Source: Malacoraja senta
Taxonomy: Eukaryota
Reading direction: 5' to 3'
Assembly: GCA_038087875.1 (NCBI GenBank)
Contig: CM075991.1
Span: 1,984,001-2,048,000 of the forward strand
DNA: 64,000 nt
This document shows, piece after piece, positions 31,113-64,000 of the stretch (its first letter is position 1; every line of letters starts with the position of its first letter). A program made the translations under genes and the position numbers. Under the pieces are notes generated by a model. That model saw only the letters and a list, made by a program, of their open reading frames with translations, was not told the origin of the DNA and made no database searches.

Positions 31113-31676
31113 GTAGAAACATATGTGCAGGAGTAGGCCATTCGGCCCTTCGAGCTAGCACCGCCATTCAATATCATCATGGCTGATCATCCAAAATCAG
31201 TACTCCGTTCCTGCTTTCTCCCTATATACCTTGATTCCTTTAGCTCTAAGAGCTAGATCTAACTCTCTCTTGAAAACATCCAGTGAATCGGCCTCCACCG
31301 CCTTCTGTGGCAGAGAATTCCACAGATTCACAACTCTCTGTGTGAAAAAGTTTTTCCTCATCTCAGTCCTAAATGGCCGACCCCTTATTCTAAAACTGTG
31401 ACCCCTGGCTCTGGACTCCCCCAACATCGGGAACGTTTTTCCTGCATCTAGCTTGTCCAATCCTTTTAAGAATTTTATATGTTTCCATAAGATCCCCTCT
31501 CATCCTAAATTCCAGTCGACCCATTCTTTCATCATACGTCAGTCCCGCCATCCCAGGAATTAACCCGGTGAACCTACGTGGCACTCCCTCAATAGCATGA
31601 ATGTATTTCCTCAAATTAGTAGACCAAAACTGCACACAATACTCCAGGTGCGGTCTCACCTGGGCCTTGTACAACT
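31113..31676 (-). mobile_element. CR1 3' fragment immediately downstream of the FGFR1 signal-peptide exon
   Basis: ORFs 31390-31674 and 31197-31460. Confidence 0.85.
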
Positions 31677-32750
31677 AGGACGGAACGGCAGATGCTGGTT
31701 TAAATCGAAGACAGGCACAAAATGCTGGAGTAACTCAGCGGGACAGGCAGCAACTCTGGAGAGAAGGACTGGCTGATGTTTCGGGTCGAGACTCTTCTTC
31801 AGACATTAGAGTATTGAGTTCAGTCCTGGGCACCGTGTTACAGGACAGATGTTGCCACGCTGGAGCAGGCGCAGAGAGGGTAGCACGGTGGTGCAGCGGT
31901 GGAGTTGCTGCCTCACAGCGCCAGAGACCCGGGTTGATTCATGACCATGGGTGCTTGCCTGTATGGAGTTTGTATGCGGTCACGTGGGTTTTCTCCGGGT
32001 GCTCAGGTTTTGTCACACACTCCAGAGGTTAATTGGCTTCGGACAGCAGCCGGTGTCAGGACCAGAACCGGTGTCTCGGGCGCTGTGAGGTGGCAAATCT
32101 ACCGCTGCGGCACCGTGCAGCCCGCAAATATTTCCTGCAGATATTATTCACTTGTCGGTCCTGATTTTGTGAAATTGAGGCTTTGGGCCCACTGCAGAGA
32201 CTGCGAAGCTTTTTAATGAATAAGATGGAATCTAAAACACATAAATAAGCAGGGTTTGTGTGTTGTGTGCAGCATGGCCAGTGTGAATTGTAGAAGAGTC
32301 GACAGTCGCCGCTGCCTCTCAACCCCCCCTGGTCTGCGTATGTTGTGTAGTCTAGAGGTCGATGATTTGGTCCCTCTGTGACGCGGGAGCAAACGCGTGG
32401 ATAGCACTGCGGGCAGAACCACGTTGCAGCCCCTCCTTCATGTTTTGACCGCGTCCAAGATGGTGTCAAACCCAGACGGCTATTTGCCCGCGAGCCACAG
32501 AAGCAGATCTCCCATCACATATTACAATCGCCCCACACTCTGAAATATCTCCTTGGTGACCCCCTCAGACCATCCTTGATCCAACTTTGGAGGAAGGAAA
32601 CTGCAGATGCTGGTTTAAACTGAAGATAGACACAAAAAGCTGGAGTATCTCAGGCAGCATCTCTGGAGAGAAGCAATGGGTGTCGTTTCGGGCCTGAAGT
32701 AGGGTCTCGACCAGAAACATCATCCATTCCTTATCTCCAGAGATGCAGCC

Positions 32751-34463: not shown

Positions 34464-34575
34464 CTGCCTGTCCTGCTGAGTTACTCAAGCTTTTTGTGTC
34501 CATCTTATTCCAACTTTGCTGGCTTAACCTTGCACTAAACGTTATTCCCTTCTCATGTATCTGCACGCTGTGATG

Positions 34576-35096
34576 GGGCTATCTCACTGTACGATATAAT
34601 TCAAGAGTTCTCCCGAGTTTCCCCAGCATCCCCTTTCCCATTAGAACTGCCCCCTCCATCGACTCTTTTAAGTCAAGAATAAAGACTTTCCTGACGCCCT
34701 CTGAGTGAGGGCTACATGTATATATGTATGTAGTTTGTTTTTGTTTGTGCTATTCTTATAACAAATGTAAAGCACTTTGGCCAACGAGAGTTGTTTTTTA
34801 AATGTGCTATATAAATAAATGTGACTTGACTTGACTTGACTGATTCGAACTTGGAGAATTACGGTAATAGCCGCTCGTAGGTACTCGGGGCTCTCGTGGA
34901 CATTTTTCAACATGTTGGAAAATACTTCACGAGCTTACCGCGTTTCCCGAGTACCTGCCGTTAGCGTTACGAGCCGCTAAGAGACGTCCCGAGCTCCGAC
35001 GTACCCGCTACGTACATTCTACCTACTTACCATGAGTTTTATTTTTTTTAAACTCGGGAGAGCTCTTGGGTAAACTCGTATAGTGGGACAGGGCCT
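34576..35096. mobile_element. PIF/Harbinger-like MITE with a nested L2 tail
   Basis: Degenerate TIRs GGGCTATCTCACTGTACGA / TCGTATAGTGGGACAGGGCC. Confidence 0.6.
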
Positions 35097-35574
35097 TAAT
35101 GGGTCGATTGTAATCCTGTATTGTCTTTCTGCTGACTGGATAGCAAGCAACAAAGGCTTTCACTGTACCTCGGGACACGTGACAATAAACTCAACTGAAA
35201 CTGACTTGGCCCTACACTCTGTGAGATGCTGCCTGTCCCGCTGAGTTGCTCCAGCATTTTGTGCCTACCTTTGGCCCCTACACTCTGTGGGTTTAGTCGA
35301 GGGGTCACGAGGGGTTTGACCTGTCTGCATCCCTGGAACCCAGAGTTTGTGGTTCCCACCATTGTGACATGAGGAAGGTTCCCGACCCGAAACATCGCCT
35401 GTCCTTTCCTTCCACAGATGCTCCTTAACCCACTGAGTTCCTCCAGCACTTTGTGGTTTACAAGATTCTAGCACCTGCAGTTCTTTATGTCTCTTTTTGC
35501 ATCATGAAACTACACTGACCAGTTCAGTGCCATGTTGAAGGTCCAAAAATCTTGTCAGTCATACAGTAGAATTA

Positions 35575-37460
35575 GGCCCTTCAGCCCACCATGCCCTTAC
35601 TGACCAACTTGTCCCATCTACACTAGTCCCACATGCCTGTGTTTGACCCATAGACCTCTAAACCTGTCTGGTCAATGTACCTGTCCAAATGTTTCTTAAA
35701 CGTTACGATAGTCCCAGCCTCAACTACCTCCCAGTAGCTCGTTCCATACACCCACCACCCTTTGTGTGAAAAAGTAACCCGTCAGGTTCCGATTAAATCT
35801 TTCCCTCCCCTCACCTTGAACCTATGTCCTCTGTTTCTCCATTCACCTACTCTGGGCAAGACACTCTGTAAATCTAGCAATTTTTTTCCTCTCATGATTT
35901 TGTACACCTCTATGAGATCAACCCCCATTCTCCTGCGCTCCAGGGAATAGAGTCCTAACCTTCTCAACCTCTCCCCATAGCTCAGACCCTCAAGTCTGGC
36001 AACATTGTCGTAAATCTTCTCTGTACCCTTTTCCAGCTTGACATCTTTCCTATAACATGGTGCCCAGAACGGAACACAATATTCTAAATGCGGTCTCACC
36101 AACGTCTTATACAACTGCAACATGACCTCCCAACTTCTATACTCAATACTCTGACTGATGAAGTCCAAAGTGCCAAAAGCATTTTAGACCACCTCATCTA
36201 CCTGCGACTCGACCTTCAAGGAACCATGCACCTGTACTCCGAGATCCCTCTGCTCTACAACACTACTATTTACTCTGGAGGTCCTGCCCTTGTTAGACGT
36301 CCTCACTATTTCAATTCAATGAATCATTCTAAAGGCAGTGTGAAGAAGGCAGCATCTCTGGAGAGCATGGTCTCACCAACGTCTTGTATAACTGCAACAT
36401 GATCTCCCAACTTCTATGCTCAATACTCTGTCTCATGAAGGCCGGTGAGCCCCCTTTGACCGCCCTAGATACCTGTAGCACCACATTCAAGCAACTTTGT
36501 ATCTGTCCTCCTAGATCCCTCTGCTCTACAACACTCCTGAGCCCAGCCGTTCACTGTGTGGTCGACAGTGTGTGGTTGACAGTATGTGATGATGCGTGTG
36601 TGATGATGCGTGTGCAGTTCTATGCAGTGTGTCCGTCTTGGCACTCTTGACTCTGAGTCACAATTGTAGTTTTGAGTCGCCCTTCTGAAATAGATCGGGT
36701 AGACGCACCGAGTCTCTTGCCCAGAGTAGGTGAATCGAGGACCAGAGGACTTAGGTTCAAGGTGAAGGGGAAAAGACTGAATAGGAATCTGAGGGGTAAC
36801 AAGAGCCAAAGGGCCTGTTTCCGTGCTGCATCACTCTATGACTCTACGAATAGTGAAAGGCTTGGATAGAGTGGATGTGGAGAGGATGTTTCCAATAGTG
36901 GGAGAGTCTAGGACTAAAGATTCAATAGGAATCTGAGGGGTAACTTTTTCACACAAATGGTGGTGGGTGTATGGAACAAGCTGCCAGGGGAGGTAGTTGT
37001 GGCTGGGACTATCCCAATGTTTAAGAAACAGTTAGACAGGTACATGGATTGGGCAGGTTTGAAGGGATATGGACCAAACGTGGGCAGGTAGGACTAGTGT
37101 AGATGGGACGTTGGGCAGAATGGGTAAGTTGGGCTGAAGGGCCTGCTTCCACTCCATGAATCGAAAAGTCCCGCCAAACCCTGGGGGGGGGGGGGGCTGC
37201 ATTGTGTGGGAGGGGCGCACGGGAGAGGCGTCCGTCTTGGGGCAAGAGCGCGGTGAAACGGGAATTCATTGCCATAGACGGCTGTGGAGGCCAAGTCATT
37301 AGGTATTTTTAAAGCAGAGATTGGCAGATACTTGATTGATATGGATGTCAAGGGTTACGGGGAGAAGGCAGGAGAATGGGGTTGAGAGGGAAAGATAAAT
37401 CAGCCATGATTGAATGGCGGAGTAGACTTGATGGGCAGAATGGCCTAATTCTACTCCTCT
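35575..37460. mobile_element. Cluster of older CR1 3' fragments on both strands
   Basis: ORF 35782-36168 ([13 protein letters not shown]) and several 3' tails. Confidence 0.75.
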
Positions 37461-38459
37461 AACTCATGAACATGGCCGTATCTATTTTGGCGGACACAAA
37501 AAGCTGGAGTAACTCAGCGGGACAGGCAGCATCTCTGGAGAGAAGGAATGGGTGACCTTTCAGGTCAAGACCCTCCTTCAGACTGAGGCAGGTCAGGTCA
37601 ACTGGGTTAAGATAATGCAGCACAGTAGCGCAGCGATCGAGTTGCTTGGGTCCAGAGTCCAAGGTTTGATCCCAACTACGTGTGCAGTCTGTGTGTGTGG
37701 AGTTTGTACGTTCTCCCTGTGACCATGTGGGTTTCCTCCCTTATGGTCCACCGAGTCCACGCCAACTAGCGATCCCCGCATATACTGACACTATCCTACA
37801 CACACTCAGGACAATTTACAATTTTACCAAAGCCAATTAACCTACAATCCTGTGCGTCTTTGGAGTGTGGGAGAAAACCGGAGCACCCGGGGAAAACCCA
37901 CGTACAAACTGGGTACAGACGGCCCCTGTAGTCGGGATGGAACCCGGGTCTCTGGCGCTGTGAGGCAGCGCCTATACCGCTGCGCCACACTGCGACTATA
38001 CTCACTGCACAAACGCTCCCTTCCCAGTTTGTCCCTTGCCCATCCAAGTGGAACGTGATGCCCTGTCGGATCAGACAAACCGACCCCTGGTGTCCACAGA
38101 TCGCAGCACCGACCCCAGCAAATGCAACTCCTCGGCTAAACCCCGGCAGGCCGGCCATCTCGGTGCCAAATGAGGCGCGGCGCAGGCAGGCAGATTGTTT
38201 CCAGACGGCTGTGCAGGAAGGCTGCTCTCTCTGAGTGGTTGCAGATGGTGGGTGACGTAGAACAGGCCCATCACTGATTCCACTGTGTGTCGCAGGCCCG
38301 GACACACTCAGGGAGGGTGCACGCTAGGCAAGAAATTCCCCCCCGCCCCCCCACCCCACCACCAGATGCTTCTCCACATCTGGAGCGCAGCCCCCACTGG
38401 CTCTGTACAGCAGAGAGCACAGGATCACCGCCACTGCAAGGCCGTGCAGCGAGACCCTA

Positions 38460-38820
38460 TAAACCACCCTCCCTCCATCGCTCCGTCTCCCCGCCCCCCA
38501 CCCCTCACTCCCTCCCCTCCCACCCCATCCTGGCCCTCTTATTTCCCCCCCTCCCCACGATTGCCCTCTCACTCTCCCCCCCCACCCTCTCCCCACCCCC
38601 AACCTCTCCCCACCCTCTCACTCTCCCCCACCCTCGCCCCAACACCAACCTCTCCTCACTCTCCCCCCCACCCGCCATCTTGCTCCACTCCCCCCACCGC
38701 CCTCTCAATCTCCCTCCGCACCAACCACCCACCTACAACCACCCCCTCCCCCGCCCTCTTCCTCCCCCATCAACACTCCCCTCCCCCCCATCAACTCTCC
38801 CCCCCCCCCACCCCACCGTC
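38460..38820. repeat. C-rich low-complexity tract
   Basis: Direct inspection. Confidence 0.9.
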
Positions 38821-39719
38821 CAGAACTAGGTTTGTTGAACAGCTAGAAGGCAGCGGTGGGTGTGTTCCACGGTGAATGGGCAAATGGGGAATGTATGGAG
38901 GTGGCAGCTGCAGGTTAACGTGGGGGATCTGTCACCTCACCTTGACTGGAAGGATGACATTTTCTTTTAACGTGGAGCGATTTTCCTGGTTCTACAAAAT
39001 AGGGAAGATAGCAGGCAAGTCCGAAACACGTGATGAGTTGTTCTGTACGCAGAAGAAATTTTTGATGGGAAGGAATGGGTGACATTTCGGATCAAGGCTC
39101 TTCTTCAGACTGAAAGTCGGGAGAGGGAGAGAAGGGTCTCGACCCAAAACGTCACCCATTCCTTCTCTCCAGAGGTGCTGCCTGTCGCGCTGAGTTACTC
39201 CAGCATTTGGTGTCTATCTTTGGTGTAAACTAGCATCAGTTCCTTCCCAGAAGTTTATGTTTGATTGATTGATTGATTGAGTGATTGATTGAAAGATACA
39301 GCAGGGAAACAGGCCCTTTCCCCACCGAGACTACGCTGACCATCGATCACCCGTTCGCAGACTAGTCCCATGTTAACCCACTGTCACATCCGCTCCCTTC
39401 ACGCGAGGGGCACTTCACGGAGGGCCAGTTAACTTACTCACACACATCTTTGGGATGTGGGAGGACCCACGCCGTCACAAGAAGAACGTGCAAACTCCAC
39501 AAAGACAGCACCGGAGGTCAGGATCAAGCCTGTGTCTCTGGAGCTGTGAGGCAGGAAGGATTATTGTTGCAAGCACTCTGCGATTCCATGTCAATAGGTT
39601 TAAGAACGGACGCAGAGACGGTATCTACTCTGCCCACGGGCCCTTGACAACAGTGGCATGGGGCAGAGAGATGCCCACTTTGCCCCCCCTTAGAGATAGC
39701 AACATAGCTCACCAGGAGG

Positions 39720-40253
39720 CATTTTGGTCTACAAATTTGAGGAAGGACATTCTTGCTATTGAGGGAGTGCAGTGTAGGTTCACAAGGTTAATTCCCGGGA
39801 TGGCGGGACTGTCATATGCTGAGAGAATGGAGCGGCTGGGCTTGTACACTCTGGAATTCAGAAGGATGAGAGGGTATCTTATTAAAACATATAAGATTAT
39901 TAAGGGTTTGGACACGCTAGAGGCAGGAAACATGTTCCTGGTGTTGGGGGAGTCCAGAACCAGGGGCCATACACAGTTTAAGAATAAGGGGTAAGCCATT
40001 TAGAACGGAGATGAGGAAACACTTTTTCACAGAGAGTTGTGAGTCTGTGGAATTCTCTGCCTCAGAGGGCGGTGGAGGCTGGTTGTCTGGATACTTTCAA
40101 GAGAGCTAGATAGGGCTCTTAAAAATAGCGGAGTCAGGGGATATGGGGGGAAGGCAGGAACGGGGTACTGATTGTGGATGATCAGCCATGATCACATTGA
40201 ATGGCGGTGCTGGCTCGAAGGGCCGAATGGCACCTATTGTCTATTGTCTATTG
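39720..40253 (+). mobile_element. CR1 3' fragment
   Basis: FWSTNLRKDILAIEGVQ...; (TATTGTC)n tail. Confidence 0.85.
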
Positions 40254-42549
40254 AGTGCTTGGGGAAGAGGAGCAGAATAAAATGCATGGAATTGACAGTG
40301 ACTTGGTCGCATGGACTAACAAACTAACTTACTGATAGAAAACACAGGCTTATGTTGGAAGGACAATATTCAGGCTAGATTCTGTGCTGGGACCTCTGTT
40401 ATTTGTGATCTGTACAAGCGAAGGTAGACACAAAATGCTGGAGAAACTTAGCAGGTGAGGCAGCATCTATGGAGAGAAGGAATGGCCGACGTTGCCTCAC
40501 CCGCTGAGTTACCACAGCATTTTGTGTCTACCTTCGATTTTACCAGCATCTGCAGTTCTTTCTTACACATACGTATAAGTGATTTGGATATAAACCTGGA
40601 CATGACTATGGTTGCGCAGCGGTAGAGTTGCTGCCTCACAGCGCCAGGTTCGATCCTGAATATGGGTGCTGTCTGTCCGGAGTTTGTACGTTCTTCCCGT
40701 GACTTGCGTGGGTTTTCTCTGGGAGCTCCGGTTTCCTCCCACACTGCAAAGATGTGCAGGTGTGCAGGCTAATGGGCGTGGCAAAATTGAACAAATTGTC
40801 CCTAGTGTGTGTAGGTTGGTGTTAGTGTGCGGGGATCGCTGGTCGGCGTGGACTCGATGGGCCGAAGGGCCTGTTTCAGGTATCCCCGCAACCTCCGGCG
40901 TTCCTGAGAAAACAATCCGAGAGTCACAGTCGAAAGTCGTCCTCTGTGCTCTGTGTGTGGGTTTGAATGGGATTTCTCTGCGTTTGTGTCTGGGGTGGGA
41001 CTCGAACCAGAAACCTCCCAGCTGGGAGGTTGGTGCTCATCTTCTGGGCTCAGCTGCTGTGTAAGGAGGCAGCTGCGGAGAGAATGGTGCAAGAGTGGCG
41101 CAGCGGTGGAGTTGCTGCCTCACGGAGCCAGATCCTGACCACGGGTGCTGTCTGTACGGAGCTTGTACGTTCTCTCCGTGACTGCATGGGTTTTCTCCGA
41201 CATCTTCAGTTTCCTCCCACACTCCAAAGACTTTTAGGTTTATTGGTTATTTGGCTTGTGTAATTTGTACATTGTCCCTAGTGTATAGGATAGTGTTAGT
41301 GTACGGGAATCGATGGTTGGCACAGACCCGGTGGGCCGAAGGGCCTGTTTCCATGCTGTATCTCTAAACTAGTTTACGGGAATCGATGGCCGGCACGGAC
41401 CCGGAGGCCGAAGGGCCTGTTTCCGTGCTGTATATCTGAAGTGTAAAGCATGTGGGGAAGATTGGGAGAGGGGAGAAAGTGAGGTTACTGTTTTAAGACG
41501 GGTTGCTTCGTCCATATGACGGTGTTGTGTTGTGTGTCCTGGTGTTAAACTGCCGTGTTTTGTTCTGAGCGTTCCCTCGGGCAGCGAGTGAGACTGGGAG
41601 CCATGTGCGTCTGTGTTTGGGGCCTCGATGCATTAAGCAGCCCCAGGGGATGGAAGGTGGGTGACGATGGGTTGCTTGCCTTACGGGCCTCTCTCCGCCC
41701 CCCCCTAAACCCCCCACTGGGAGAGAGGTCAACGTTGACAGCTGGGGCAATGTTTTGACAAAGCGATTCCCACAGAGTGCGGAGGGAATGAGGTTTGAAC
41801 AGCCCTCGACACAGGAAGATTTGTGTCCAGTTTCAATCCCAGCGTGTTGTCCTGACTTCCAGGAATAATGCAGGGCCACTATACCCAGCTACAGAAGCAG
41901 CCACACCGCAACTCTTGGAGCAGTTTCCTCTCTTCGGACAGTTGTGACACACTCTGACGTGAATATTTAAGAATTGTAGCACAGGGCGGTAGAGTTGCGG
42001 CCTCATAGTGCCCGAGACCCTGGGTTCGATCCTGACTACGGGTGCCGTCTGCACGGAGTTCGTACGTTCTCCCCGTGACCTGCGTGGATTTTCTCCGCGA
42101 TTTTCGATTTCATCCCGCGCTCCATATACGTGCAGGTTTGTACGTTCATTGACTTGGTAAAATTATAAATTGTCCTGAGTGTAGGATAGTGTTAATGTGT
42201 GGGGATCGTTGGTCGGTGCAGACTCGGTGGGCCGAAGGGCCTGTTTCCACGCTGTATCTCTAAACTAAACTAAACTAAACTTCAATACCACTATTCCACA
42301 AAATGCCTCAGCAATTAACCCTGGCAGCGTGTTCCTGGCACTCACCATCCTCTATGTAAACAAGCTGCCCCGCACATCTCCTTTAAACGTTGCCCTCTCT
42401 CACCTTCAACCTATGCCTTCTAGTATTTGATGTTTACACCCAGTTCTGACTGTTTATCCTTATCTCTGCCTCATAAACAATTGTTAGAGGGGATGGTTTG
42501 TACCTTAAGAAACATCAAAACCATTGCCTCCATCAACAACATTGACTCC

Positions 42550-43101
42550 GGAAGAAGGCTCCAATACCAACTATAAATATGTGGATTTCAAATATGTTTG
42601 AAACATTACACCTAGAAGAGATAAGACTCCTCCTAGCAGGTAAACCAGATCACTTCCACCTGACGTGGTCTGCATTTATAGAATTATTACAAACATAGGG
42701 TGCAAAAGTACTTAAAAAAAAAAAATTGAGGTCAGGTAAGGGGGGATGCTAGTTGAAGAGTTGGTATGTCCCATTTACGTAATGCTCATAAAAATATTTG
42801 TTTCTCTCTTTTTCCTCTTTCTCTTTCTCTTTCTTTCCTAGGGTCTATTTCTTAACTATTTTTCTTTTGTTTTTAATTTTGCTCTTATAGGGTCTTCGTC
42901 CTTTTTTGTTGTCACATTTTCTACACTTTCACTTTTTCCTTCACTTTCTTCTTTCTTTCAATCTTTTCCTTTTCTAGTGTAAAAAATAAATGGAGTACAT
43001 TAATTGTAAGAAGATATAAATGACGAGTACTAATGTATGCGGTTGTAATGTAATGTACTTCTAATAAATAAAAAAATAAAAAATAAAAAAAAATTAAAAA
43101 A
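42550..43101 (+). mobile_element. L1-clade 3' fragment with poly(A) tail
   Basis: 15-bp TSD AACAACATTGACTCC (42535-42549 and 43102-43116); MWISNMFETLHLEEIR remnant. Confidence 0.85.
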
Positions 43102-43174
43102 AACAACATTGACTCCATCTACACCATGGACCACTCGCATCCCCACCAAAGAAAGGCACAAAGTGCTGGAGTTA

Positions 43175-43403
43175 AGGGCCTGTCCCACTTTCACGACCTA
43201 ATTCACAACCTTTTTTACTCGTGGACATTTTTCATCAGGCTAGAAAAAAACGCCGCAACCTACTTGATGCCACGAGTACCTACGACTAGCATCACGGCCT
43301 GCTACGACCTACCTACGACCTCGTGACGACCATACGGCGAGTATGAGTCAAGAGCAAACTTGGCAGAGGTCGTGAATTAGGTCGTGAAAATGGGACAGGC
43401 CCT
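43175..43403. mobile_element. PIF/Harbinger MITE
   Basis: TIR AGGGCCTGTCCCA; TWA target. Confidence 0.85.
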
Positions 43404-45505
43404 TAACTCGGCGGGACAGGCAGCATTTTCTGGAGGGAAGGAATGGGTGACGTTTCGGGTCGAGACCCTTGCCCTCTCTACTAGCCCTGACCCTGTCCAC
43501 TCCTCAATGCTTTCTTTGCTCCAAGTCTCCAGTCTAACTTCGATGCAGATTGGAAGCTGAGGATGAATTCCAGATTTCCAGGATCGGGGAATCCTGGATC
43601 TCGGAATTGGAGCCAGGTTTTCCAGAGCAAAGTTGGGAAACACTTGTAAAATATGTATCTTGCAGCAAAACTGGTGTGGGAAGCGAAGGGTCACAGTCTC
43701 TCTTGAAAATGCAGCGCTCCCTCTATATTGGGTTGGATTAAACGATGTGTGGATTTAAAATAGCCAACTATCGACACCTTAGTGGCATGTGCAAGGCCCA
43801 CCATGATGTGGGCAATGTTGGTGGAGTTGAGCAGAGAGCTCTGAGTTACTGCCTTGTGGCCTGTGTATAAAATCATGAGGGGAATAGATAGGGTGAATGC
43901 ATGGTGGTGTGTGTATGGAACAAACTGCCAGAGGAGTTGTTTTTAGAGATACAGGATGGAAACAGGCCCTTCGGCCAACCATGTCCACACCGACCAGCGT
44001 TCCCCATTACACTAGCACACACTATACACTAAGGACAACTTTACTAAGCCAATTAACCGACAAACCTGAACGTCTTTGTGGAGTGTGGGAGGAAACTGGA
44101 GCACCAGGAGACAACCCACGCAGGTCACGGGGAGAAGGTACAAACTCCGTACAGACAGCACCCGTAGTCAGGATCGAACCCGGTTCTCTGGCGCTGTGAG
44201 GCGGCATATCTACTGCTTAGGTAGTTGAGGCAGGTACTTAACAACATTTGAAAGACATTTGGACAGGTGCATGGATGGGAAAGGTCTGGAGGAAATGCGC
44301 TAAAGGTGGGACTAGTGTAGATGGGGCATCTTGGTCAGCATGGGCAAGTTGGGCTGAAGGGCCCGTTTCTGTGTTGTATATCTCTGGTATGGCTTGAGGA
44401 AGTAACAGTGGATTGGAGACAGAGATTGATAGGGTCAGGAATGCTTGCAGTGAAGGATGGTCGATAAGTCAGAGGTCATCTGTCATCAAGGGCAAGCTTT
44501 CAAACACGTTTACAAATTAGTCATCGACGTTGGCTTAATGAGGATCGTCTTGGCCTTTCGGATCAGTCATCTTTGAACTGGTGACCGCGGTACAGATCCT
44601 TCTCCACGGTTTGTTCAATCAAACTGAATGGTGGTGGAAGTGTTGAGTGTGTGGGAAGGAACTGCAGATGCTGCTTTCCACTGGACACTCTTCTCCTCGT
44701 GCCCTGCGTGGGTTTTCTCCGGGTGATCCGGTCTCCTCCCACACACCAAAGGCGTACAGGTTTGTTGGCTCATTGACTTTGGCAAAATTGTAATTGTCCC
44801 TAATGTGTGTAGGATAGTGTCATTGAACGGGGATCGCTGGGGGCGAGGACTCGGTGGGCCGAAGGGCTGTTTCCACTCTAGACGAAAACTAAACAAAACA
44901 TGCGGAGGAAGGAACTGCAGATGCTGGTTTACACCGAAGATAGACACACAAAAAGCTGGAGAAAACCCTTGCAGGTCACGGGGAGAACGTACAAACTCCG
45001 TACAGACAGCACCCGTAGTCAGGATTGAACCTGGGTCTCTGGCCCTGTGAGGCAGCAACTCTACAGCTGCTCCACCGTGCCGCCAACTCCACAGTGAGGC
45101 GTCCCCTCAGTGCCACTCCTCTGCCCATCTGAAAGCTTCCTAGACGCACGATCGTATCTGCCTCCCACCCCGGCACTACGTTCCAGGCTGCCACCATCCA
45201 AATGCTTGCCCACGCTGACCCTCTGTAAACTTTGCCTCTCTCGCTTTGAAGCTGTGCCCCCCCAGCCTGGCTGGGCAGCGGGGGGGGGGGGGGGGGCAAG
45301 AGTTGTTCGCTGGAGGAGAGGCCACTGTGGAGGCGTAACGTGGCTGCAGTGGGAGGGGGCGGGTGGGGGGAAGGAGTCACCGCTTCAGCCCTCTCGCCAG
45401 TTGGACCTGATGGCGGACAAACAAGCCTGTGGCGCTGCGGAGAGTGGCTGAGGTGTGCTGGAAGGAATGCAGTAAATACTACAATCATCCCTGCCAGTTA
45501 GTAGC

Positions 45506-50027: not shown

Positions 50028-50291
50028 TGTCGCTGAAGCAGAGGTCGGAGGTGGAACTGTACTCCACACACCCGGGAGACTCGCTGCAGCTGCGCTGCCG
50101 ACTGCGTGAGGACATCCAGGGCATCGCGTGGACCAAGGACGGGGTGCAGCTGCCCGCCAACAACCGCACCCGCATCACCGCCGAGTACCTGCAGATCACC
50201 GACTCGGTGCGCCAGGACTCCGGCCGCTACACCTGTGTGGCCAGCGGCCCATCTGGCAGCGAGACCTCCCACTTTGCCGTCAACGTCTCCG
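50028..50291 (+). CDS. FGFR1: FGFR1 Ig-I (D1) exon
   Basis: [59 protein letters not shown] matches FGFR1 D1. Splice sites CCTGCAG| and G|GTATGT; 264 nt, phase 1/1. Confidence 0.95.
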
Positions 50292-52792: not shown

Positions 52793-52906
52793 ACGCCGTC
52801 TACTCCGTGGAAGAGGACGACGAGGATGAGGATGAGGATGATGACGAGGTCGAGGAGGACGATGACGAGGGGAACAAGTCGGATGAGAAAAGCAACAAGG
52901 AAGCAC
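52793..52906 (+). CDS. FGFR1: FGFR1 acid-box exon
   Basis: (D)AVYSVEEDDEDEDEDDDEVEEDDDEGNKSDEKSNKEA. Pyrimidine tract plus CAG| acceptor, C|GTGAGT donor; 114 nt, phase 1/1. Confidence 0.9.
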
Positions 52907-53681
52907 GTGAGTACAGATGGGCTGCGGTCAGTCGGCCTCTGCCGAAGCTGTCCGTGCCGAAACTGTCTCTGCAAAGCTGTCTCTATGGAAGCTGAAGATA
53001 AGACACAAAAAGCTGGAGTAACGAAATGTTCCTTCTCTCCAGAGAAGCTGCCTGTCCCGCTGAGTTACTCCAGCTTTTTGTGTCCTATCTTCGCCATCAG
53101 ATATATGTGGCTATCCAAAAGTGTCCTAAACGCCACAATGGCATCTGCCTCCACCACTACCCCTGGGAATGTGTTCCAGGCCCCCGCCACCCGTCGAAGT
53201 GGGAGGAAACCGGAGCACCCGGAGAGAACCCAGGAGGTCACGGGGAGAACATGCAAACTCCACACAGACAGCACCCGAGGTCAGGATAGAACCTGGGTGT
53301 GTGGATCGGTGAGGCAGCTGCTCTGCCTCAGGAAGATTCGAAAAACTAGAACTACCAGATGACCCTTATGAGAAGAGGGTTGGGAGCGGAGGGCACGTAA
53401 TCCCTCATCGTAACTCCTCATAAAATAAAGATCAAACTGGTAAGTTCTCGTTTAATCTTCCTATTTTACTTCGGAGTCACGCGAGTGACTACGTGAAGAT
53501 TTCAAAGCTGTGATTTCATGCCGTGAACACGAGTCCATGCAACACACTGCATCAGTTCACCAAAGATGAGTGAAAAATAACAATGCATTCAGACATGACA
53601 TAGATTTAAAACATGCTCATCCTTTTAGTAAACAAATGATATATATGAAAATAATAGTGACCCCTCATATCCGGGGGTAAA

Positions 53682-54659
53682 CTATAAAACAGAACTTAAA
53701 ATTGAGTTGGCAAACAACCCCGGCCTGGCAATGGGTTTATAATAAAACATTTGGAATGTTCGCGCGTTTGACCATCCTGCAGCCGCTAGGATGTGGCCCA
53801 GCGGAACCTCCATAATCCTCGCTGCTGATGTTGCTGCAGCCCTGGTGGAGTGAGATTTAAAAACATCAGTGTCCACTCCTGCACAAGCCAAAACACGTCT
53901 CAACCACCTGGAGATGGTCTGTACAGATACCTTCTTGTGAGGTTTTTTTATAACTAGCTAACATAGCTAGTTCAGTGCCTCTGAGGCTCTTTGTGGCCTT
54001 AAAATACTGTAGTAGATGTGTGACCACACACAACCGAAGGTCCATGGGGTATGCCATAAACTCTAGTTTGAGACCTGACGCCCCTGGTCTGCTCTGCTTG
54101 ACTAAGTCATAAATATAAAATGTTATTTTATTGGCAGATGTAACCATTCTGTCCAGTCGTAGCTTATGTAACGACTGGACCCGTTGCGCCGAAACCAGCG
54201 CCATGCGCATAACCACTTTATAAGTGAGTTTGACCAAGGACAGGGATGTAGCTGGAGCCCACCGCCGAAGCAGCATCAGCACAATGTTAATATCCCATAT
54301 CTCCGAGTACCTTGGCCTGGGGGGATTTGTGTTGAAGATACCTTCATAAACCTGGATATCAGTGGGTGAGACCTGACAGAGTGGTGTTACGATCCCAGCA
54401 GCAAGTATGACGACAAGGCATTTCTGGCACAATTAATGGCACTATAACTCAATCTCTCGTCAAAGAATAGTTTTGAGAGAAATTCCAGTATATCCGTTAT
54501 ACATGCCGTGTCATATGTTATGTTGGACTGCAAACAGAACGCTTCCCATCTCTTGAGATAGGAGATGTACTGCTTCTTGGTGCTATCCCTCCAAGCCGCA
54601 GTGATCACGTCCACAGTTCGATCTGACAGTCCGAGCCCCAGGAAAGGTCTTCTCAGGGT
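53682..54659 (-). pseudogene. DIRS tyrosine recombinase ORF (frameshifted)
   Basis: AWRDSTKKQY SAM-like region, SAQRVQSL, HSTRAAATS, AAGWS, FYYK. Confidence 0.88.
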
Positions 54660-54669
54660 CTGCAAATCA

Positions 54670-56590
54670 ACAAATTGATTTAATCATGCAGCGGATGGTT
54701 CTCCCCAGCCACGGGGTGAACCAGCAGATTTCTGCATTTGGGAATGGCCATAAAAGTCTCTGATATCATTCCCAATATTAGTGCGAATGATGGCTGCGTA
54801 GGCCAGTCAGGCACTACCAAAATGCCTGAAGCGGAGTCTTGCTGTATTTTTTAAAGCACCAACTGATGAGGCAAAATGGAGGGAATGCATAGAAGAACAT
54901 TCCTCCCCAGTGTAGCGAGAATGCATCAATCGACACTTCCCCTGGGTCTGGCTCCCATGCAACATACTTTGGTAACTGGTGATTGAGCCTGGATGCAAAC
55001 AAATCGATATCCAATGTTCCATACCGGGCAACAATATCGTTAAATACTTTATGATCCAACATACATTCTGTGTTGTCATTAAATTTTCGTGACCTGGTGT
55101 CCGCCACCATATTAAACCTACCTGGCAAGTAGGTAGCTGAAATCCAAATGTTTCTTGCAATACACCAGTGCCAACTGAGGTTAGCCAAATTATCACAGGA
55201 TACTGACTTGATTCCACCCATGGATTAATATATGCCACCGCAGTAGTGTTGTCAATCTGTAGCCGAACATGCAGATGATGCATATTCCCACAATAAGCCT
55301 TCAACCCATAGAATGCTCCCAGCATCTCTAAGTAGTTAATACCACGTGACTGAAGAATTGATGACTCATGTGCATCCCATTTGCCACCGCTACTAGAGAT
55401 GGTATTAGTAGCTCCCCATCCTTGAGCACTAGCATCAGTTTGTAATATAACTGAAGGTTTGCTGACCAAAATGTTACTGAAGCAATGCCGAATATTGGTC
55501 GTCCACCATTGTAACTCAGAAATAGCTTCAGCTGGTAACTGCATAGGTCTGTTAAAACGACCTGCATGGTATTCGAGTGCTTGCTCCTTTGCACGTTGTA
55601 AAGCCTGATAATGCAAAGGCCCAAACTGTGCAGCTGGAAAAGCAGCCACTAATTTGCCAATTACACTGGCTACTTGTCGTATAGATGGTTGCTCCATAAT
55701 TATAAGGTTGTTACAGGCTACTATTAATTCTAATCTCTTGCCCCAGGGCAGAGTCACAGACATGTTAATAGAGTTAATGGCAAATCCCAAATAATCAATA
55801 ACTCTAGATGGTATCAACTTGGATTTAACTGGATGGATGAGAAACCCCAATCTCTCAAACATGAGTTTAGTGGCTGAAACAGCGAATTTAGCTAATTCCA
55901 GAGTTTTCCCTATGATTAGGATATCATCCAAGTATGCCATAACAATATGATTTTGAGCTCTAAGTAGACCAAGCACCGGTTTCAATAATTTGGTAAATAA
56001 TCTGGGGGCTGAAGTTAACCCATAAGGCAATGCTTTAACTGCCACAGTTGCCCCATCCAGTTAAACTTCAAATATCTCCGGTGATCCCTGTGAATGGGTA
56101 CCGAATAGTATGCATCTTTGAGATCGATACATGCCATAAAGCATCCTTTGGAAATCAGTTGTTTGGCAGTAACGAAGTTTTCCATTTTTAAATGTCTATA
56201 CTGCACAAAAGAGTTAAGTTGAGTCAAATCAAGGATGATTCGGAATCCTCCATCTTTCTTTTGTCTTGTAAATATATTAGAAACGAATTGGTGATGTTCA
56301 TGACTCGACTTTTCAATTACCCCTTTTGTATATAACGTTTGAATTTCAGCTTGTATATCCAAACCTTCCTGTTGTGAATGAACAAATGTCCGGCTTGGTG
56401 TATGCTGTGTGGGTGGCAATGAATTGGGAAGGAATTCGATTTGGAACCCTTGTATACTGTGAAGTATCAACGGAACTGATGTTATCCAACGCCATTCATT
56501 CAAAAACAAGTGTAATCTCCCACCAACTTGTAACTGGTCCACACATCCCATGTTCCGGAAAGAACCAGACCCACCTACCTCCATGGTTAC
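54670..56590 (-). pseudogene. DIRS RT-RNase H-methyltransferase ORF (frameshifted)
   Basis: FRIILDL, IDLKDAY, LPYGLTSAPR, YLDD, TDASAQGWG, INYLEM, IDNTTAVAYIN, DLFASRLN, YAFPPF. Confidence 0.88.
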
Positions 56591-56699
56591 TGGTGGCTGT
56601 ATGGTTTCTATTTCCGCCCCCCGATGTTTGGGGGGTAGGGTTGCTGGAGTGCGCGGGTTGCGCATCTTCCACGAGGGCCGGCCTGGGCCTTGGCCTAAA

Positions 56700-57861
56700 A
56701 AAGACTTCTGCCCAGAGGATTCGGCCTTTGAGCTGCCACAGCTTCTGCGAACCGCTTACTGCTGATGGAAGTGTAGGGGTGCTGCAGCCGGAATGGTGAA
56801 GCTTTGCTTGTCAATGGAGCCTTTATCAGCCCGACAGCTTTCGCTTATTCGTCCAGGTCTTTAACCCGTTTCGGCAGATCTTCTCCGAACAGAAGATTCG
56901 GCGGCTGGACATTGCTGGCCCTGCACAGCCCCGCAAATTTGGGGTTCAGGGCAGGTCGGATGGCGTTTTTGCGAAAACAGTTAATTTCGAAATGTGCGTT
57001 GCACATTAACGCCAGGGCATCCTGCTGTACATCTGACAAGGGACCCCCATCCACAGACCTGGTAAACGCCGTAATGCCTGAAGCTAGCAATTTCAGGATT
57101 CTCTGGAGCTTCATCTCCTGGGCTTTGATGCCCCCTCCGATGTATCCCCAGGTAGAGCTGTTCACAGCCGGCACATTCAGTGAAGCACAATTCCCAGGTG
57201 TGTGGTACTTTGCAGATGTTTCCACCATTACCTGTTCCTGCAGTTGGTGCGATGTGAGGTAATTAATGCTCGCTGCTAGATCCTCTTGCAGCGGCTCCCC
57301 TGTTTGCGAGGGTATCGCAAACTTCGACGCCATGGCAAGCAATTCTTGTGCTTCACGCACATCGTGCATTGTGGTATGCTCCCCAGACATACCTCCAAAT
57401 TCTGAGTCAGGCCAGAACTGACCCCGTACGCTCCCCTCCTCAGAGAGGGAGATATTATGCAGCCCTGGACCAGGCGCTGCCGCGGGCCCCCGAGGAGACC
57501 CGCGCTGATATAACTACGTTTCCCGGAGCATATCATGATGGAGCATCCTTTCCATAAGGTGCTCCATCCGGGATAAACGCCCGAAGACGCTATCCATTGT
57601 AGGAGGCGAATCCTCCTGGCCTGACTCGTCCGAGTAAACAGGCCTGTCAGACTTCTTCTTGGCCTTCCCCCCTTTCGGGGTTGCCAAGGTGCTTTTGACA
57701 GGCACCAAGTCTGAAGTCGCTGACTGCACCGTCAGCGACTCGGATGGCGAAATCGACGGCCGCCGGCTACCCGCACTTCCGCGGTCCTTCGTAGCTGGTT
57801 TCCCCGCGGCCCGTCTGGACTGCGCCCTGGATTTTGTCATGCTTAGTTCGAACTTGCAACT
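56700..57861 (-). pseudogene. DIRS gag-like ORF1 (frameshifted)
   Basis: ORFs 57514-57870 and 56845-57390; homologous to 17590-17877 of the first DIRS (MKLQRILKLL, NLLFGEDL). Confidence 0.8.
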
Positions 57862-58829
57862 CTGTAACAAGATTTTACCGAAACAAACAACCTCAGAATA
57901 AGTTTAAAACTTACCTGTAGGGCTTTTAAACTTACCGCTGGAGGAACGACGCCAGTCGTGCGCCATGCGTTAGACGTATTTGAACGCATACGGGCTGGCG
58001 GGCTTCATCACGTAGTCACTCACGTGACTCCAAAGTAAAATTAATAACCGCACTGGTGATGTGTTGAATGAGGGTATGGTTTATGGCTGGGACAGGATGT
58101 AACTGAAGCAGGGGAGTGGGAGCAGAATCGTTGAGCTTCTGGTTGCAGGGACAAGCTTGCTCACCAATCCCTGTTGCCCGTGACGATAACAAATACATCG
58201 ATGAAAGCACTCTGTAGACACGGAGGCCTCTTTTGTTCTCGTAGATCGATCTCATGCTAAGATTGATCTCAGCTCTAAAGGTGTGCCAGTGAAGCCACTG
58301 TGGTTCCTCCTTTGTTTTCCAGCCAAGATGCTCATGACTCAAGGCTGAGCAGAATTTACACTTGAATGGTTGTCTCGAAGAGCATTCTCACTCCCACAGC
58401 TCAGTGCCACTGCAGTCGTTAGCAGCCTTGCCAGGAAATTAGACAGCTCTCTTTCACACTTCGCAAGGAGGGCCCCTTTAAGGTTCTTGATCAAGTTTAC
58501 CACGGGCGCTGTCTGTACAGAGTTTGTACGTTCTCCCCGTGACCTGCGTGGGTTTTCCCCAAGATCTCCGGTTTCCTCCCACACTCCAAAGTCTTGAGCC
58601 ATTAGATTCGGAAGGAACTGCAGATTATGGTTTAACCGAAGACAGACACGAAAAGCTGGAGCAACTCAGCGGGTCAGGCAGCATCTCTGGAGAAAAGGAA
58701 TGGATGACGATTCGGTTCGAGACCCTTCTTCCAACTGCTTTTCAGTCTTTAGTTTAGAGATACAGCACGGAAACAGGCCCCTCAGCAGCTGTACATCTCT
58801 GCGCTCATGCCTACAGACATGCAGGTTGG

Positions 58830-59135
58830 GGTGGCACGGTGGCGTAGCTGTCAAGTTGATGCCTTGCAGCGCCGGAGACCCATGTTCGATCCCGACTACG
58901 GGTGCTGTCTGTATGGAGTTTATACGTTCTCCCCGTGACCTGCGTGGGTTTTCTCCGAGATCTTCGGTTCCCACCCACACTCCAAAGACGTACAGGTTTG
59001 TAGGTTAATTGGCTTGGTGTATGTGTAAATTGTCCCAAGTGTGTGTAGGGTAGTGTTAATGTGGAGTGATCACTGGTCGGTGCGGACCCGATGGGCCGAA
59101 GGGCCTGTTTCCGCGCTGTATCTCTAAACTAAACA
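58830..59135 (+). mobile_element. Full-length HE1-type V-SINE
   Basis: A/B boxes, V-domain, (CTAAA)n tail. Confidence 0.85.
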
Positions 59136-60143
59136 AGTTTATTTTACTACATGTTTAAGAAGGAACTGCAGATGCTGGAAAATCGAAGGTAGACAAAAGT
59201 GCTGGAGACACTATGATCATAGATGCTGCCGCACCTGCTGTGTTTCTCCAGCACTTTTGTCTACCTTTTATTTGACTACATGTAAGTTTATTAGGTCTAC
59301 AAGATTTACAGAGACCATTGTTACTTGCCCCGTTCTAATTGCCCTCTCTGCAGCATTGACTGTCCTGGGGTCGGGGTAAGAGGTGTAAGCCAAGTGTGGC
59401 ATAAATCACATTGCATGTGGGACTAGTGTAGATGGGACATGTTGGACATCCTGACCTTCGGAGCTGTCTGTGTGTGGAGTTTGCACGTTCTCCCTGTGAC
59501 CGCGTGGGTTTTCTCCGGGCCCTCCGGTTTCCTCCCACATCCCAAAGACGTGCGGGATTTGCAGGTTAATTGGCCCTCTGTAAATTGTTCCTAGTGTGTA
59601 GGGAGTGGATGCGAAAATGGGATAACATCGAACTAGTGTGAACGGGTGATCGATGGTCGGCATGGACTCGGTGGGCCGAAGGGCCTGCATCACTATGACT
59701 CTCGGGCCCTCTTCCTGTCATTCACATGGTACCAGCCTGATTGACCAAGTCAAGTCGAGTTTATTGTCAAGTGTGAAGGAAGGAACTGCAGATGCTGATT
59801 TACACCGAAGATAGACACAAAGTTCTAGAGTAACTCAGCGGGTGTGGCAAACCCATTCTGATGAAGGGTCTCGACCCAAAACGTCACTTATCCCTTTTCT
59901 CCATAGATGCTGCCTGACCCGCTGAGTTACTCCAGCACTTTGTGTCCATCTTCATTGTCTGATAAACCGATATGGGTACAATGAACCCTTACTGACATCA
60001 ACGTCAAAGGCACATAGTCACAGACAAACACAGACATGCCAACCATGCAGAAATTATGCATAGAATCTGCATATGTTAGACATAAACTATTCAATTCACA
60101 CACAATTCACAATCATTTAGATACAGAAGCAGTTAGACAGGTA

Positions 60144-60647
60144 CAATAGACAATAGGTGCAGGAGTAGGCCATTCGGCCCTTCGAGCCAGCACCGCCATT
60201 CAATGTGATCATGGCTGATCATCCCCAATCAGTGCCCCGTACCTGCCTTCTCCCCATATCCCCTGACTCCGCTATCTTTAAGAGCCCTATCTAGCCCTCT
60301 CTTGAAAGTATCCAGAGAACCGGCCTCCACCTCCCTCTGAGGCAGAGAATTCCACAGACTCACAACTCTGTGAAAAAAAGTGTTTCCTCATCTCCGTTCT
60401 AAATGGCTTATCCAGAATTCTTAAAACTTTGGTCCCTGGTTCTGGACTCTCTCATCATCGGGAACATGTTTCCTGCCTCTAGCGTGTCCAAACCCTTAAC
60501 AATCTTATATGTTTCAATAAGATCCCATCTCATCCTTCTAAACTCCACAGTATACAAGCCCAGCCGCTCCATTCTCTCAGCATATGACAGTCCCGCCATC
60601 CCGCGAATTAACCTTGTGAACCTAAGCTGCACTCCCTCAATAGCAAG
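60144..60647 (-). mobile_element. CR1 3' fragment (an opposite-strand copy lies at about 61167-61533)
   Basis: ORF 60408-60632; (GACAATA)n tail. Confidence 0.85.
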
Positions 60648-61939
60648 TACATGGAGGTAGGGCAGGTTTGGAGGGATATGGACCTAATGCAGGCAGGTGG
60701 GACTAGTGTAGCTGGAACATGTTGGCCAGTGTGGGTAAGTTGGGCCGAAGGGCCTGTTTCCACACTGTATCACTCTGACTATTTTTACACATAATTCACA
60801 TGTAACTCGCACATTGGACTTTGTCTCTGGACATGGTGCGCGACAATGCTGAGAACTATATTCTGCTCTCGGTATCTTCCCCTTTGCTCTACCTGTTGTA
60901 TTGGAGTTTGGCTTGATTGTGTTTATGTATTATGAGAGGCCTTGAAGGACAATTTAAGATTCAAGAGTCAAGAGTGTTTTATTGTCATGTGTCCCAGATA
61001 GAACAATGAGATTCTTACTTGCAGCAGCACAACACAATATGTAAACATAGTACACTGCAAACAATAGTTATATATGTATATATGTGTATATATGTGTATA
61101 TATACACATACTCGCAAATACATATATATATATAGATCATATACAGTATGTTTATACACACGCACACATATAAGATTATTAAGGGTTTGGACACATTAGA
61201 GGCAGGAAACATGTTCCCAATGTTGGGGGAGTCCAGAACCAGGGGCCACAGTTTAAGAATAAGAGGTAAGCCATTTAGAACGGAGATGAGGAAACACTTT
61301 TAGACACAGAGAGTTGTGAGTCTGTGGAATTCTCTTCCTCAGTGGACGGTGGAGGCCGGTTCTCTGGATAATTTGAAGAGAGAGCTAGATAGGGTTAAAG
61401 ATAGCGGAGTCAGGGGATATGGGGAGAAGGCAGGAACGGGGTATTGATTGTGGATGATCAGCCATGATCACATTGAATGGCGGTGCTGGCTCGAAGGGCC
61501 GAATGGCCTACTCCTGCACCTATTGTCTATTGTCACAGACGTACACACACACAAAAACAATCAATAATAATCCAATGATAACAATAATAGTCTGTTGTAA
61601 TTCTGCGCTTATTTGGAGGGTTGGAGGGTTTAATAGCCAAATGGCTGTAGGGAAGAAGGTGTTCCTGCACCTGGACCTTACACGGGTTCTTATATTGTGA
61701 CTCGAAGGTGCCAGAAACATGGCGACTCGTGTACGGACAGTGTGGTCTACTGCCTTACACTCCAGTACTCCAGTATGGATGTGCCTAATGTATAGAAGGA
61801 TTGTCACTGAAGTGTAAGCAAACAAGCATGTTCACTGTACTTACTTACAAGTACCAATAACGTACCATTGAACCATGATACTATCAGATCAGATTGGATA
61901 GCACGCAAAACAAAGGTTACATGACAATTGTAAACCTAA

Positions 61940-62300
61940 ATCTCTCTCTCGCTCTCTCCCCCTCTCTGTCTCGCTCGCTCGCTCTCTGTCTGTCTCTCTC
62001 CCCCTCATTCACCCTACTCGCACTCTCTCTCACTCTCTATACCCCCTGCTCCCCTCCCTTTCCCTCTCTCTTCACTCTGTCTCTCCCCCTCCCCTTCTGT
62101 CTTCTCTAACTCTCACCCTCTCTCTTCCCTCTCTCTTCCCCTCTGTCTCCCCCTCTCCCCTTCTCTCATCTCTATCCCTCTATCTCTCTCCCCCTCTCCC
62201 TCCTCCACTCTCTCTCCTCTCTCTCTTCCCTCTCTCTACCCCCTCTCACTCTTGTCTCTCTCCAACCTCTCTCTCTCTCTCCGTGCCCCCATGGCCCTCT
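61940..62300 (+). repeat. Long CT-rich polypyrimidine tract preceding the Ig-IIIa exon
   Basis: Direct inspection. Confidence 0.9.
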
Positions 62301-62305
62301 CCCAG

Positions 62306-62496
62306 AGCGATCCCCTCACCGGCCCATTCTCCAGGCGGGCCTGCCTTCCAACAAGACGGTGATGGTGGGCAGTGATGTGGAGTTTATGTGCAAGGTCTAC
62401 AGCGACTCCCAGCACCACATCCAGTGGCTCAAGCACGTCATGGTCAACGGCAGCAGCTTCGGGCCCGATGGCTCTCCCTACATCCAAGTGCTGAAG
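62306..62496 (+). CDS. FGFR1: FGFR1 Ig-IIIa exon (D2-D3 linker and first half of D3)
   Basis: [69 protein letters not shown] is the FGFR1-type motif. 191 nt, CCCAG| acceptor and AAG|GTACGT donor. Confidence 0.96.
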
Positions 62497-64000
62497 GTAC
62501 GTCCTTGGCCGCCAGCTTTGGCCAGTCTAGGCTTGGATGAGGTGGGGACGGTCGACTCAGATGACTGCCCGTGGGTGGGCATAGACACGATGGGCCGAAT
62601 GGCCCGTTTCCACGCTGTACCACTATTTGACATGGTGGGACCACGGGTGGGGCAATCATTGCAGATGGGTTTCCTATGGGTGGGCATAGACTTAATGGGA
62701 TGAATGGCCTGTTTCCACACTGTACGCCTCTATTGGACAACCCGCCCAGGTGCGTTTGATCATTGGACGAGGTGTGGGCGGTCAATGCACATGGGTTCCC
62801 ACGGGTGGTCATGGACATAATGGGCCGAATGGCCTGTTAGCAGGCTATATGACTAGATCAGACTGGCTGCGCATATGTGTGCTTCATCTGATTTGGCATG
62901 AATGAGGGGGAGGGTGGAGACAGTAAGTGAAGATGGCTGCCCGTGGGTCGGCATGACCAAGTGGGCTGAATGGCCTGTTTCCAGGCTGTAGAGCGTTTCC
63001 CCAGACAACGTGGATGAGGTGTGGGTGCAAGAGGGAACAGGCTGCTTGGGACTGTCCCCAGAGAGTGCTCATGGCTGCCCCTGGAGGTTGGAGGGCCACA
63101 AGACATCATTAGAGTGTCGTCTGCTCAGAGCTGCTCATCCTGATATTAACCCTCGCTCGCAGGGGAGAGTTAAAGAGCCCTTCCCTCCTGTCCACAGTCA
63201 CGTTCGCCTAGTGTTAGGCGACCAGGGTGGCACGGTGGCGCAGCGGGTAGAGCCGCTGCCTCACAGAGCCAGAGAGTTAGCTTCGATCCTGGCCTCGGGT
63301 GCTGTCGGTGTGGAGTTTCCACGTTCTCCCTGTGACCACTAGGTTTGCTCCGGGTGCTCCGATTTCCTCCCACATCCCAAAGACGTGCGGGCTTGTAGGT
63401 TAATTGCCCCTAGTGTGTAGGGAGTGGATGAGAAAGTGGGATTACGTGGAACTGGTGATCGATGGTCGGCGTGGACTCGGCGGGCAGAAGGGCCTGGGTT
63501 CCATGCTGTATCTCTGAACTAAACTGGTGTAGACCTTTGTTTAATTTCCCTTCAAGGTGTCAGTGGCTTCAAGGGACCATCTACGCCCATGGCAACTGAG
63601 GGCGAGGGATAGATATCAAAGAGCGTGGACACTGTGTGGGGTTTGCTCTGTGCACCGATCAGCTGTGATCCTCTTCTGCCCTCGACCTTCCCCGGAGATA
63701 GCCCAGGGGTACCCGATCTCTCGTCCTCCCTCCCCCGTCCTGGAAATACCAACGGGTTCCTTGGAGATGAAAGGCGAGGTCCTCTGAGGGCAGATTATCC
63801 CAGGGATCAGAAGTGTGATGGGACAGTGCTGGAGTTCACAGCTATAAACCCATCACTGATCAGACATCCCAAAGCAAAACGCCGCAGATGCTGAAAAATC
63901 TAAACATAAAGCCCACGAACACCGGGGGCCACTGTAGAGTTGCTGCCTCACAGCGCCAGAGACCCGGGTTCGATCCTGACTACGGCTGCTGTCTGTACGG

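Follow-up and report, generated by a model that had tools for sequence, protein, structure and literature searches.

How does a locus with FGFR1 exons come to lack the second immunoglobulin (Ig) domain, D2, and what could its product do? The question is raised by a 64,000-nucleotide stretch of the skate Malacoraja senta (GenBank assembly GCA_038087875.1, contig CM075991.1, positions 1,984,001 to 2,048,000, forward strand), here called the window. A preliminary description took the locus for the FGFR1 receptor gene. The locus is instead a separate partial duplicate of FGFR1, and the true gene lies 12.2 Mb away on the same scaffold. The duplicate joins the first Ig domain (D1) and the acid box to three copies of the third Ig domain in its IIIc form (D3c). 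Its gene structure is almost certainly real. Tentatively, and at a little short of even probability, the duplicate is read from sequence as encoding a secreted, multivalent D3c modulator or decoy, with the binding partner suggested by conservation of the D3c groove.

Window positions, continued past the window end where needed, are converted to positions on scaffold C15 by adding 1,984,000. The parts of the duplicate are as follows.

30941..31031, plus strand: signal-peptide exon, coding part; 28 of 30 residues equal the parent exon; GT donor, with the acceptor near 30849 (read by eye).
50028..50291, plus strand: D1 (Ig-I) exon; AG/GT; 1 residue off Amblyraja FGFR1 and 2 off Leucoraja FGFR1.
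52793..52906, plus strand: acid-box exon; 114 nt; AG/GT; identical to the Leucoraja FGFR1 acid box.
52907..62305, plus strand: intron without either D2 exon.
62306..62496, plus strand: IIIa exon, copy 1; 191 nt; AG/GT.
61439..64000, plus strand: the part of the tandem D3 array inside the window, continuing beyond the window end.
61439-69603, plus strand: D3 unit 1, with IIIa-1 at 62306-62496 and IIIc-1 at 64770-64914.
69604-77242, plus strand: D3 unit 2, with IIIa-2 at 70455-70645 and IIIc-2 at 74063-74207.
77243-88025, plus strand: D3 unit 3, with IIIa-3 at 78119-78309, IIIb at 82495-82639 and IIIc-3 at 84819-84963.
89377-89459, plus strand: candidate last coding exon, inside an L1-like endonuclease remnant; AATAAA at 89626.

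The exon-level observations of the preliminary description hold. The acid-box and IIIa exons are intact with good splice sites, and their join, in phase 1, keeps the frame and reads E-A-Q-R-S-P-H-R-P. The 9,399-nt interval between them contains no N (the sole N gap of the window is at 45506-45705), and 8,237 of its bases match repeats elsewhere in the DNA examined. A profile made from 193 D2 sequences found no D2 exon in the interval, with a best score of -4.7 bits against 70.3 bits for the control, the D2 exon of the FGFR3-like gene of the same genome. No D2 was found in the 664 kb of assembly DNA examined, the rest of the window included; the top score, 8.7 bits, fell on the D1 exon. Half of the interval is occupied by one element of ~4.7 kb.

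53330..58045, minus strand: DIRS-like retrotransposon inside the D2-less intron; reverse transcriptase Pfam PF00078, E=4e-11; broken frames.

This element has a 37-nt terminal direct repeat and is presumably of the DIRS type, to judge by its gene order. A full-length copy, 74% identical, lies ~50 kb downstream, and related pieces of 64-93% identity occur in 9 of the DNA stretches examined.

The IIIa exon was also used to search the genome; three of its 4 matches lie within 16 kb at the duplicate locus. The two boundaries between D3 units share one junction: copies of a single repeat family, which sits 5′ of IIIa and 3′ of IIIc, overlap there by GGGTA. The tandem units thus arose through repeats. 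IIIb was removed from unit 1 by a 4.1 kb deletion between two copies resembling short interspersed elements and from unit 2 by a separate 3.2 kb deletion with other breakpoints; the only IIIb exon of the array, in unit 3, is two codons short. For a deletion that spares IIIa and IIIc, the chance of hitting IIIb is 0.91 and 0.53, so the IIIb losses are not separate evidence of selection against IIIb.

In order, the exons encode the signal peptide, D1, the acid box, IIIa-IIIc three times (with IIIb in unit 3) and the candidate end. Together the ten exons form a single open frame, 519 codons long (519 amino acids), whose only stop is at its end, and 18 of 18 splice sites of its 9 introns are canonical. 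The predicted protein consists of a signal peptide, D1, the acid box and three D3c domains, and its ten cysteines are two in the signal and two per Ig domain. The last exon uses a cryptic acceptor in the L1-like remnant and is read in a frame other than that of the element (Pfam PF03372, E=1e-16); 22 of its 27 residues match the tail of an Amblyraja model. No transmembrane (TM) or kinase exon was found in the 200 kb downstream of the window, ~170 kb past the last exon, a region with two 200-N gaps, both >125 kb past that exon. Mean hydropathy over 19 residues is 1.96 at the N-terminus and at most 0.84 after residue 30, leaving no later hydrophobic segment. Secretion of the product is predicted from the signal peptide and this lack. 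Read-through of the last IIIc donor meets a stop within 23 codons, so a soluble product is predicted with either ending.

The parent FGFR1 lies at C15:14.226-14.268 Mb and has its own signal-peptide exon and all kinase exons. Part of the window is collinear with it.

29660..45505, plus strand: segment collinear with parent FGFR1, comprising the ATG exon and intron; 5′ edge in a GT microsatellite.

The collinear blocks have 90-95% BLAST identity to C15:14224286-14240660, and the segment differs from the parent by 688 substitutions in 12,129 aligned bases (5.7%). An assembly gap at C15:14243902-14244101 (L075) spans the place of the parent's D1 to TM exons. The search of the whole assembly for FGFR1 D2 that the preliminary description proposed found none, and FGFR1 TM was not found either; D1 and the acid box were each found a single time. 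The gap explains these results. FGFR2 and FGFR4 D3 exons were also not found in the assembly, which is therefore incomplete. Downstream of the parent is a weak LETM1-like match (L082:1529-1732, minus strand; E=0.002), which fits the FGFR1-LETM2 neighbourhood.

Comparison with other skates had also been proposed earlier. A protein survey covered the best 120 of 1,591 matches and the best 120 of 203, with cluster members. Of the 369 proteins examined, the form D1-(D3c)n without D2 or kinase was seen in 5, all from Amblyraja and Leucoraja. The Amblyraja radiata RefSeq models have 520, 501 and 523 amino acids and three D3c; those of Leucoraja erinacea have 378 and 381 amino acids and two D3c. They have the same domain order and the same acid-box/IIIa and IIIc/IIIa junctions as the Malacoraja duplicate, and the derived residues G315S and K321Q (human FGFR1 numbering) are common to the last IIIc of all three skates. 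Both other skates also carry full FGFR1 models, on a sequence of the same length as the one that carries the D2-less models. Because architecture, junction and derived residues are shared, the gene is real and older than these species. Among matches listed for Hypanus, Mobula, Hemitrygon, Narcine, Pristis and sharks the form was not seen, which is weak evidence of absence.

The duplicate derives from FGFR1, with a D1 within 1-2 residues of skate FGFR1. In a tree of D3 sequences (63 rows, 110 columns), all 8 skate D3 copies nest with batoid FGFR1 (99/88), and repeats group across skate species (96/81, 98/92). The pattern is best fitted by a single origin before the three skates split, probably followed by unequal crossover and conversion. 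The D2-less proteins of the two skates each have several RefSeq transcript accessions. Several transcript accessions for one protein normally reflect RNA support, and these isoform models suggest that the duplicate is transcribed and spliced. Neither diagnostic junction was found in 118 short database fragments, whose best identity of 82% is below skate level and makes them uninformative. Four contig runs compared with the IIIa exon gave 0 records, which does not prove absence.

Some other skate sequences concern the parent gene. In RefSeq isoforms XP_055518101 (P0041) and XP_032869805 (P0126) of full skate FGFR1, D2 is skipped while TM and kinase are kept; these may reflect true exon skipping or else reads that stem from the duplicate but were assigned to the parent. 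Two skate proteins from Logan, P0128 and P0129, have D1-D2-D3c, end by IIIc-donor read-through and may represent a soluble product of the parent gene. A third, P0033, appears chimeric, with a skate FGFR1 ectodomain fused to an FGFR2-like TM and kinase, and is likely a contig artefact.

What the product might do depends on the division of labor within the receptor. In PMC10284700, the heparan-binding lysines and the contacts required for primary ligand binding are located in D2, and the Klotho arm clasps the D3 groove of c-type receptors. In PMC9636537, the FGF8b helix occupies the same D3c groove and needs the IIIc leucine to do so; the D3 of FGFR4, when isolated, still folds and can bind a ligand in the groove. 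PMC12828087 describes D1 and the acid box as autoinhibitory and soluble FGFRs as decoys. The protein would then have lost ordinary FGF and heparan binding, in agreement with the preliminary description, which thought normal FGF binding unlikely. Because the heparan and primary ligand contacts are in D2 and the groove is in D3, each D2-less protein would be a poor general FGF trap that still presents two or three D3c grooves. These grooves would compete for partners that dock on D3c alone, such as Klotho co-receptors and FGF8-family N-termini, and the secreted protein would likely dampen or redirect receptor signalling. In the predicted structure of the Amblyraja protein, the mean predicted local distance difference test score (pLDDT) is 62.8 and the predicted template modelling score (pTM) is 0.29. 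Each D3 is predicted as an Ig fold, with most 10-residue blocks at pLDDT 65-84, and the model suggests independent Ig domains on a flexible chain. The matches in a fold search were generic chains of several Ig domains and ectodomains of FGFRs, which added nothing beyond sequence.

Some residue patterns accord with this proposal. All 8 skate copies retain L342, the leucine of the IIIc groove. Positions changed in skates number 8 of 26 in FGF-facing loops, 4 of 29 in GFCC′ strands and 15 of 55 elsewhere, with loops assigned after FGF-FGFR structures. The Klotho/FGF8 groove thus appears to be kept while FGF-facing loops drift. Changes from skate FGFR1 number 4 to 11 per duplicate copy and 2 in Narcine (one artefactual end column removed). 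The 519-codon path has no internal stop, shifted frame or lost splice site, and no deletion reaches into its exons; only IIIb was lost or shortened. Under neutrality 2.45 disabling point changes or indels are expected and 0 were observed (P 0.086); the chance that two large deletions both spare IIIa and IIIc is 0.085. The joint chance of no disabling event, computed post hoc, is ~0.007.

Similar proteins occur in teleosts. Among the 369 proteins are models that have D3c but no D1, D2 or kinase: seven with D3c in tandem, from six species of percomorphs, a partial one from Clarias, and five with a single D3c, each from a different teleost. The D3c-only genera are Pagrus, Sparus, Acanthopagrus, Chaetodon, Chelmon, Scatophagus and Clarias, and the single-D3 genera are Channa, Anabas, Simochromis, Megalobrama and Myxocyprinus; here the teleost D3c-only proteins are known from gene models alone. 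The tree places teleost solo D3s beside teleost fgfr1 and away from the skate copies, and the architecture appears to have arisen independently of skates. At invariant sites, departures of the teleost solo D3s are most frequent in FGF-facing loops (0.245) and rarest in GFCC′ strands (0.052); for loops against the rest, p=0.0006 with related rows. Skate changes at FGFR-invariant sites coincide with the teleost departures (0.25 vs 0.09, p=0.003). Other fish models keep the full receptor and add an N-terminal D3, namely clupeiform fgfr1a and FGFR4 of reedfish, sturgeon and gar, or repeat D2-D3, as in notothenioids and Mustelus FGFR3 (P0018, P0019, P0024, P0032; P0025, P0027, P0029, P0031; P0005, P0007, P0013).

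The preliminary description had offered a deletion allele of FGFR1 encoding a D1-acid box-D3 receptor, or an assembly collapse or misjoin as at least equally likely. Either is now very improbable. With the parent's D1-to-TM exons missing and one D1 and one acid box present, parent and duplicate sequence could be mixed locally on the upstream side of the D2 breakpoint. Each of the two loci, however, has its own signal-peptide exon, their introns have diverged by 5.7%, and the same D2-less tandem architecture stands beside full FGFR1 in two independently assembled skate genomes. The D3 copies are 4-5% apart with distinct deletion breakpoints and are not collapsed or falsely repeated reads. A more serious alternative, which is plausible though doubtful, accepts the duplicate as real and takes it for a transcribed remnant without selected function, a repeat-cut segmental copy whose frame has stayed open through chance and through gene conversion with the parent. 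Several results weigh on its side and against a selected modulator. The three D3 copies differ by 18 nonsynonymous and 6 synonymous changes (dN/dS ~0.94, 24 changes), and their exons have diverged as much as their introns (4.8% and 4.2%), which is what a remnant evolving neutrally would show. Parent homology stops ~1.2 kb upstream of the ATG exon, in the GT microsatellite, so the parent promoter seems excluded from the copy, and no inherited promoter was found for the duplicate. In each species the D1 and acid box resemble those of its own parent gene, and their conservation may reflect gene conversion, not selection. The contigs next to the two gaps share no overlap, and the window's D1 and acid box may be the duplicate's own or the parent's. 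Species vary in the number of repeats and in the last exon, and the tandem junctions lie in ordinary repeats. The intactness probabilities are post hoc and concern one lineage, and avoidance of FGFR-invariant sites is marginal (10/58 vs 17/52 variable, p=0.077; the 17 includes the artefactual end column). The skate-only bias to FGF-facing loops is not significant (invariant sites 4/16 vs 6/42, p=0.44), and the p=0.003 for coincidence with teleosts is optimistic, the teleost rows being related. Against a remnant stand the open frame in three species, with the low joint chance of no disabling event in one of them, the kept core and groove residues, and the recurrence of similar architecture in teleost models.

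Two further readings grant the protein a function of another kind. It is unlikely, but conceivable, that the protein is secreted as a decoy for some pathogen or parasite molecule whose receptor is the D3 of FGFR1-IIIc, with a dN/dS near 1 hiding positive selection in loops together with constraint on the fold. Host decoys typically combine copy-number variation, fast loop change and repeated origin. The skate and teleost proteins resemble them: their copy number varies, their loops change fast at sites that are invariant elsewhere, and they appear to have arisen repeatedly in fishes. The ligand is hypothetical, however; a literature search for FGFR1-IIIc as a fish virus receptor found no paper, and loss of constraint after loss of D2 explains the same loop changes. 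Less probable again is a D3-D3 pair that replaces D2-D3 and rebuilds the FGF cleft, giving a heparan-independent FGF trap of altered specificity. Each following D3 meets the preceding one through an intact E-R-S-P-H-R-P linker, R250 and S346 are kept in 8 of 8 skate D3 copies, and three copies are changed at T266 or T268 in the A′ strand, which would face the cleft by structural equivalence. This arrangement is opposed by the drift of FGF-facing D3 loops, by a model without fixed domain arrangement (pTM 0.29), and by the role of D2 in primary ligand contacts and heparan binding (PMC10284700). A modulator or decoy acting through the D3c groove is the reading preferred here. In its widest form, possible but doubtful, fishes would repeatedly and independently have made FGFR1 into secreted D3-IIIc-only proteins. 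These D2-free multivalent decoys, a class so far unrecognised, would either adjust signalling of the Klotho/FGF8 type or capture a ligand from a pathogen; the skate gene would be one clear instance and a dozen models from teleosts parallel ones.

Other features near the duplicate were recorded. A CpG-rich stretch at 1700-4100 was considered as a promoter and rejected as a young multi-copy long terminal repeat element; its reverse transcriptase/RNase H part and integrase part are on opposite strands (read by eye), and 40 scored genome matches to 2750-3900, the window copy included, are 98-100% identical. Just upstream of the window, a 335-codon open reading frame (L065:6549-7553, plus strand) has a GDSL/SGNH hydrolase domain (E=7e-14) and is possibly the ORF1 esterase of a long interspersed element. 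An intronless alpha-2 adrenergic receptor gene (L022:978-2255, plus strand) lies ~130-145 kb from the duplicate, some 145 kb downstream of its last exon.

Known FGFR derivatives resemble the duplicate in part. Soluble FGFR isoforms and traps generally keep D2-D3, the FGF-binding unit. FGFRL1 (FGFR5) is an ancient kinase-less FGFR paralog with D1-D2-D3, a TM and a short tail, and is regarded as a modulator or decoy. The skate duplicate is also kinase-less, but it is young, FGFR1-derived (D3 ~90-96% identical to skate FGFR1) and without D2 or TM. The soluble forms (sFGFR1-IIIc, FP-1039, secreted FGFR3) likewise are ectodomains without TM or kinase and are proposed decoys (PMC12828087). They are splice or engineered products of a receptor gene, whereas the skate duplicate is a separate locus with no D2 and tandem D3c. 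The orthologous gene has only automatic names, 'FGFR1-like' for XP_032869859-64 (Amblyraja radiata) and XP_055518012-16 (Leucoraja erinacea); these models differ in repeat number (3 and 2), in having other last exons and in an M-N-S start against M-I-S. Teleost 'FGFR1-A-like' models have D3-IIIc alone or in tandem without D2, TM or kinase, and the same loops drift, but they comprise a signal peptide and D3c only, without the D1 and acid box of the skate duplicate. In the openly accessible literature, to which the search was confined, neither a second fgfr1 in skates nor fish proteins made of D3c alone were found described; PMC11195640 mentions Fgfr1 once, as a drug target.

For work on skates, two near-identical 5′ halves must be kept apart in fgfr1 probes, RNA-seq counts and dN/dS estimates. 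For the receptor family, D2-D3 has been treated as the minimal working unit of the FGFR ectodomain. A D2-less, D3c-multiplied gene in three skates, paralleled in teleosts, would offer a natural test of what D3c alone may do, whether in docking Klotho or FGF8-family partners or in binding another ligand.

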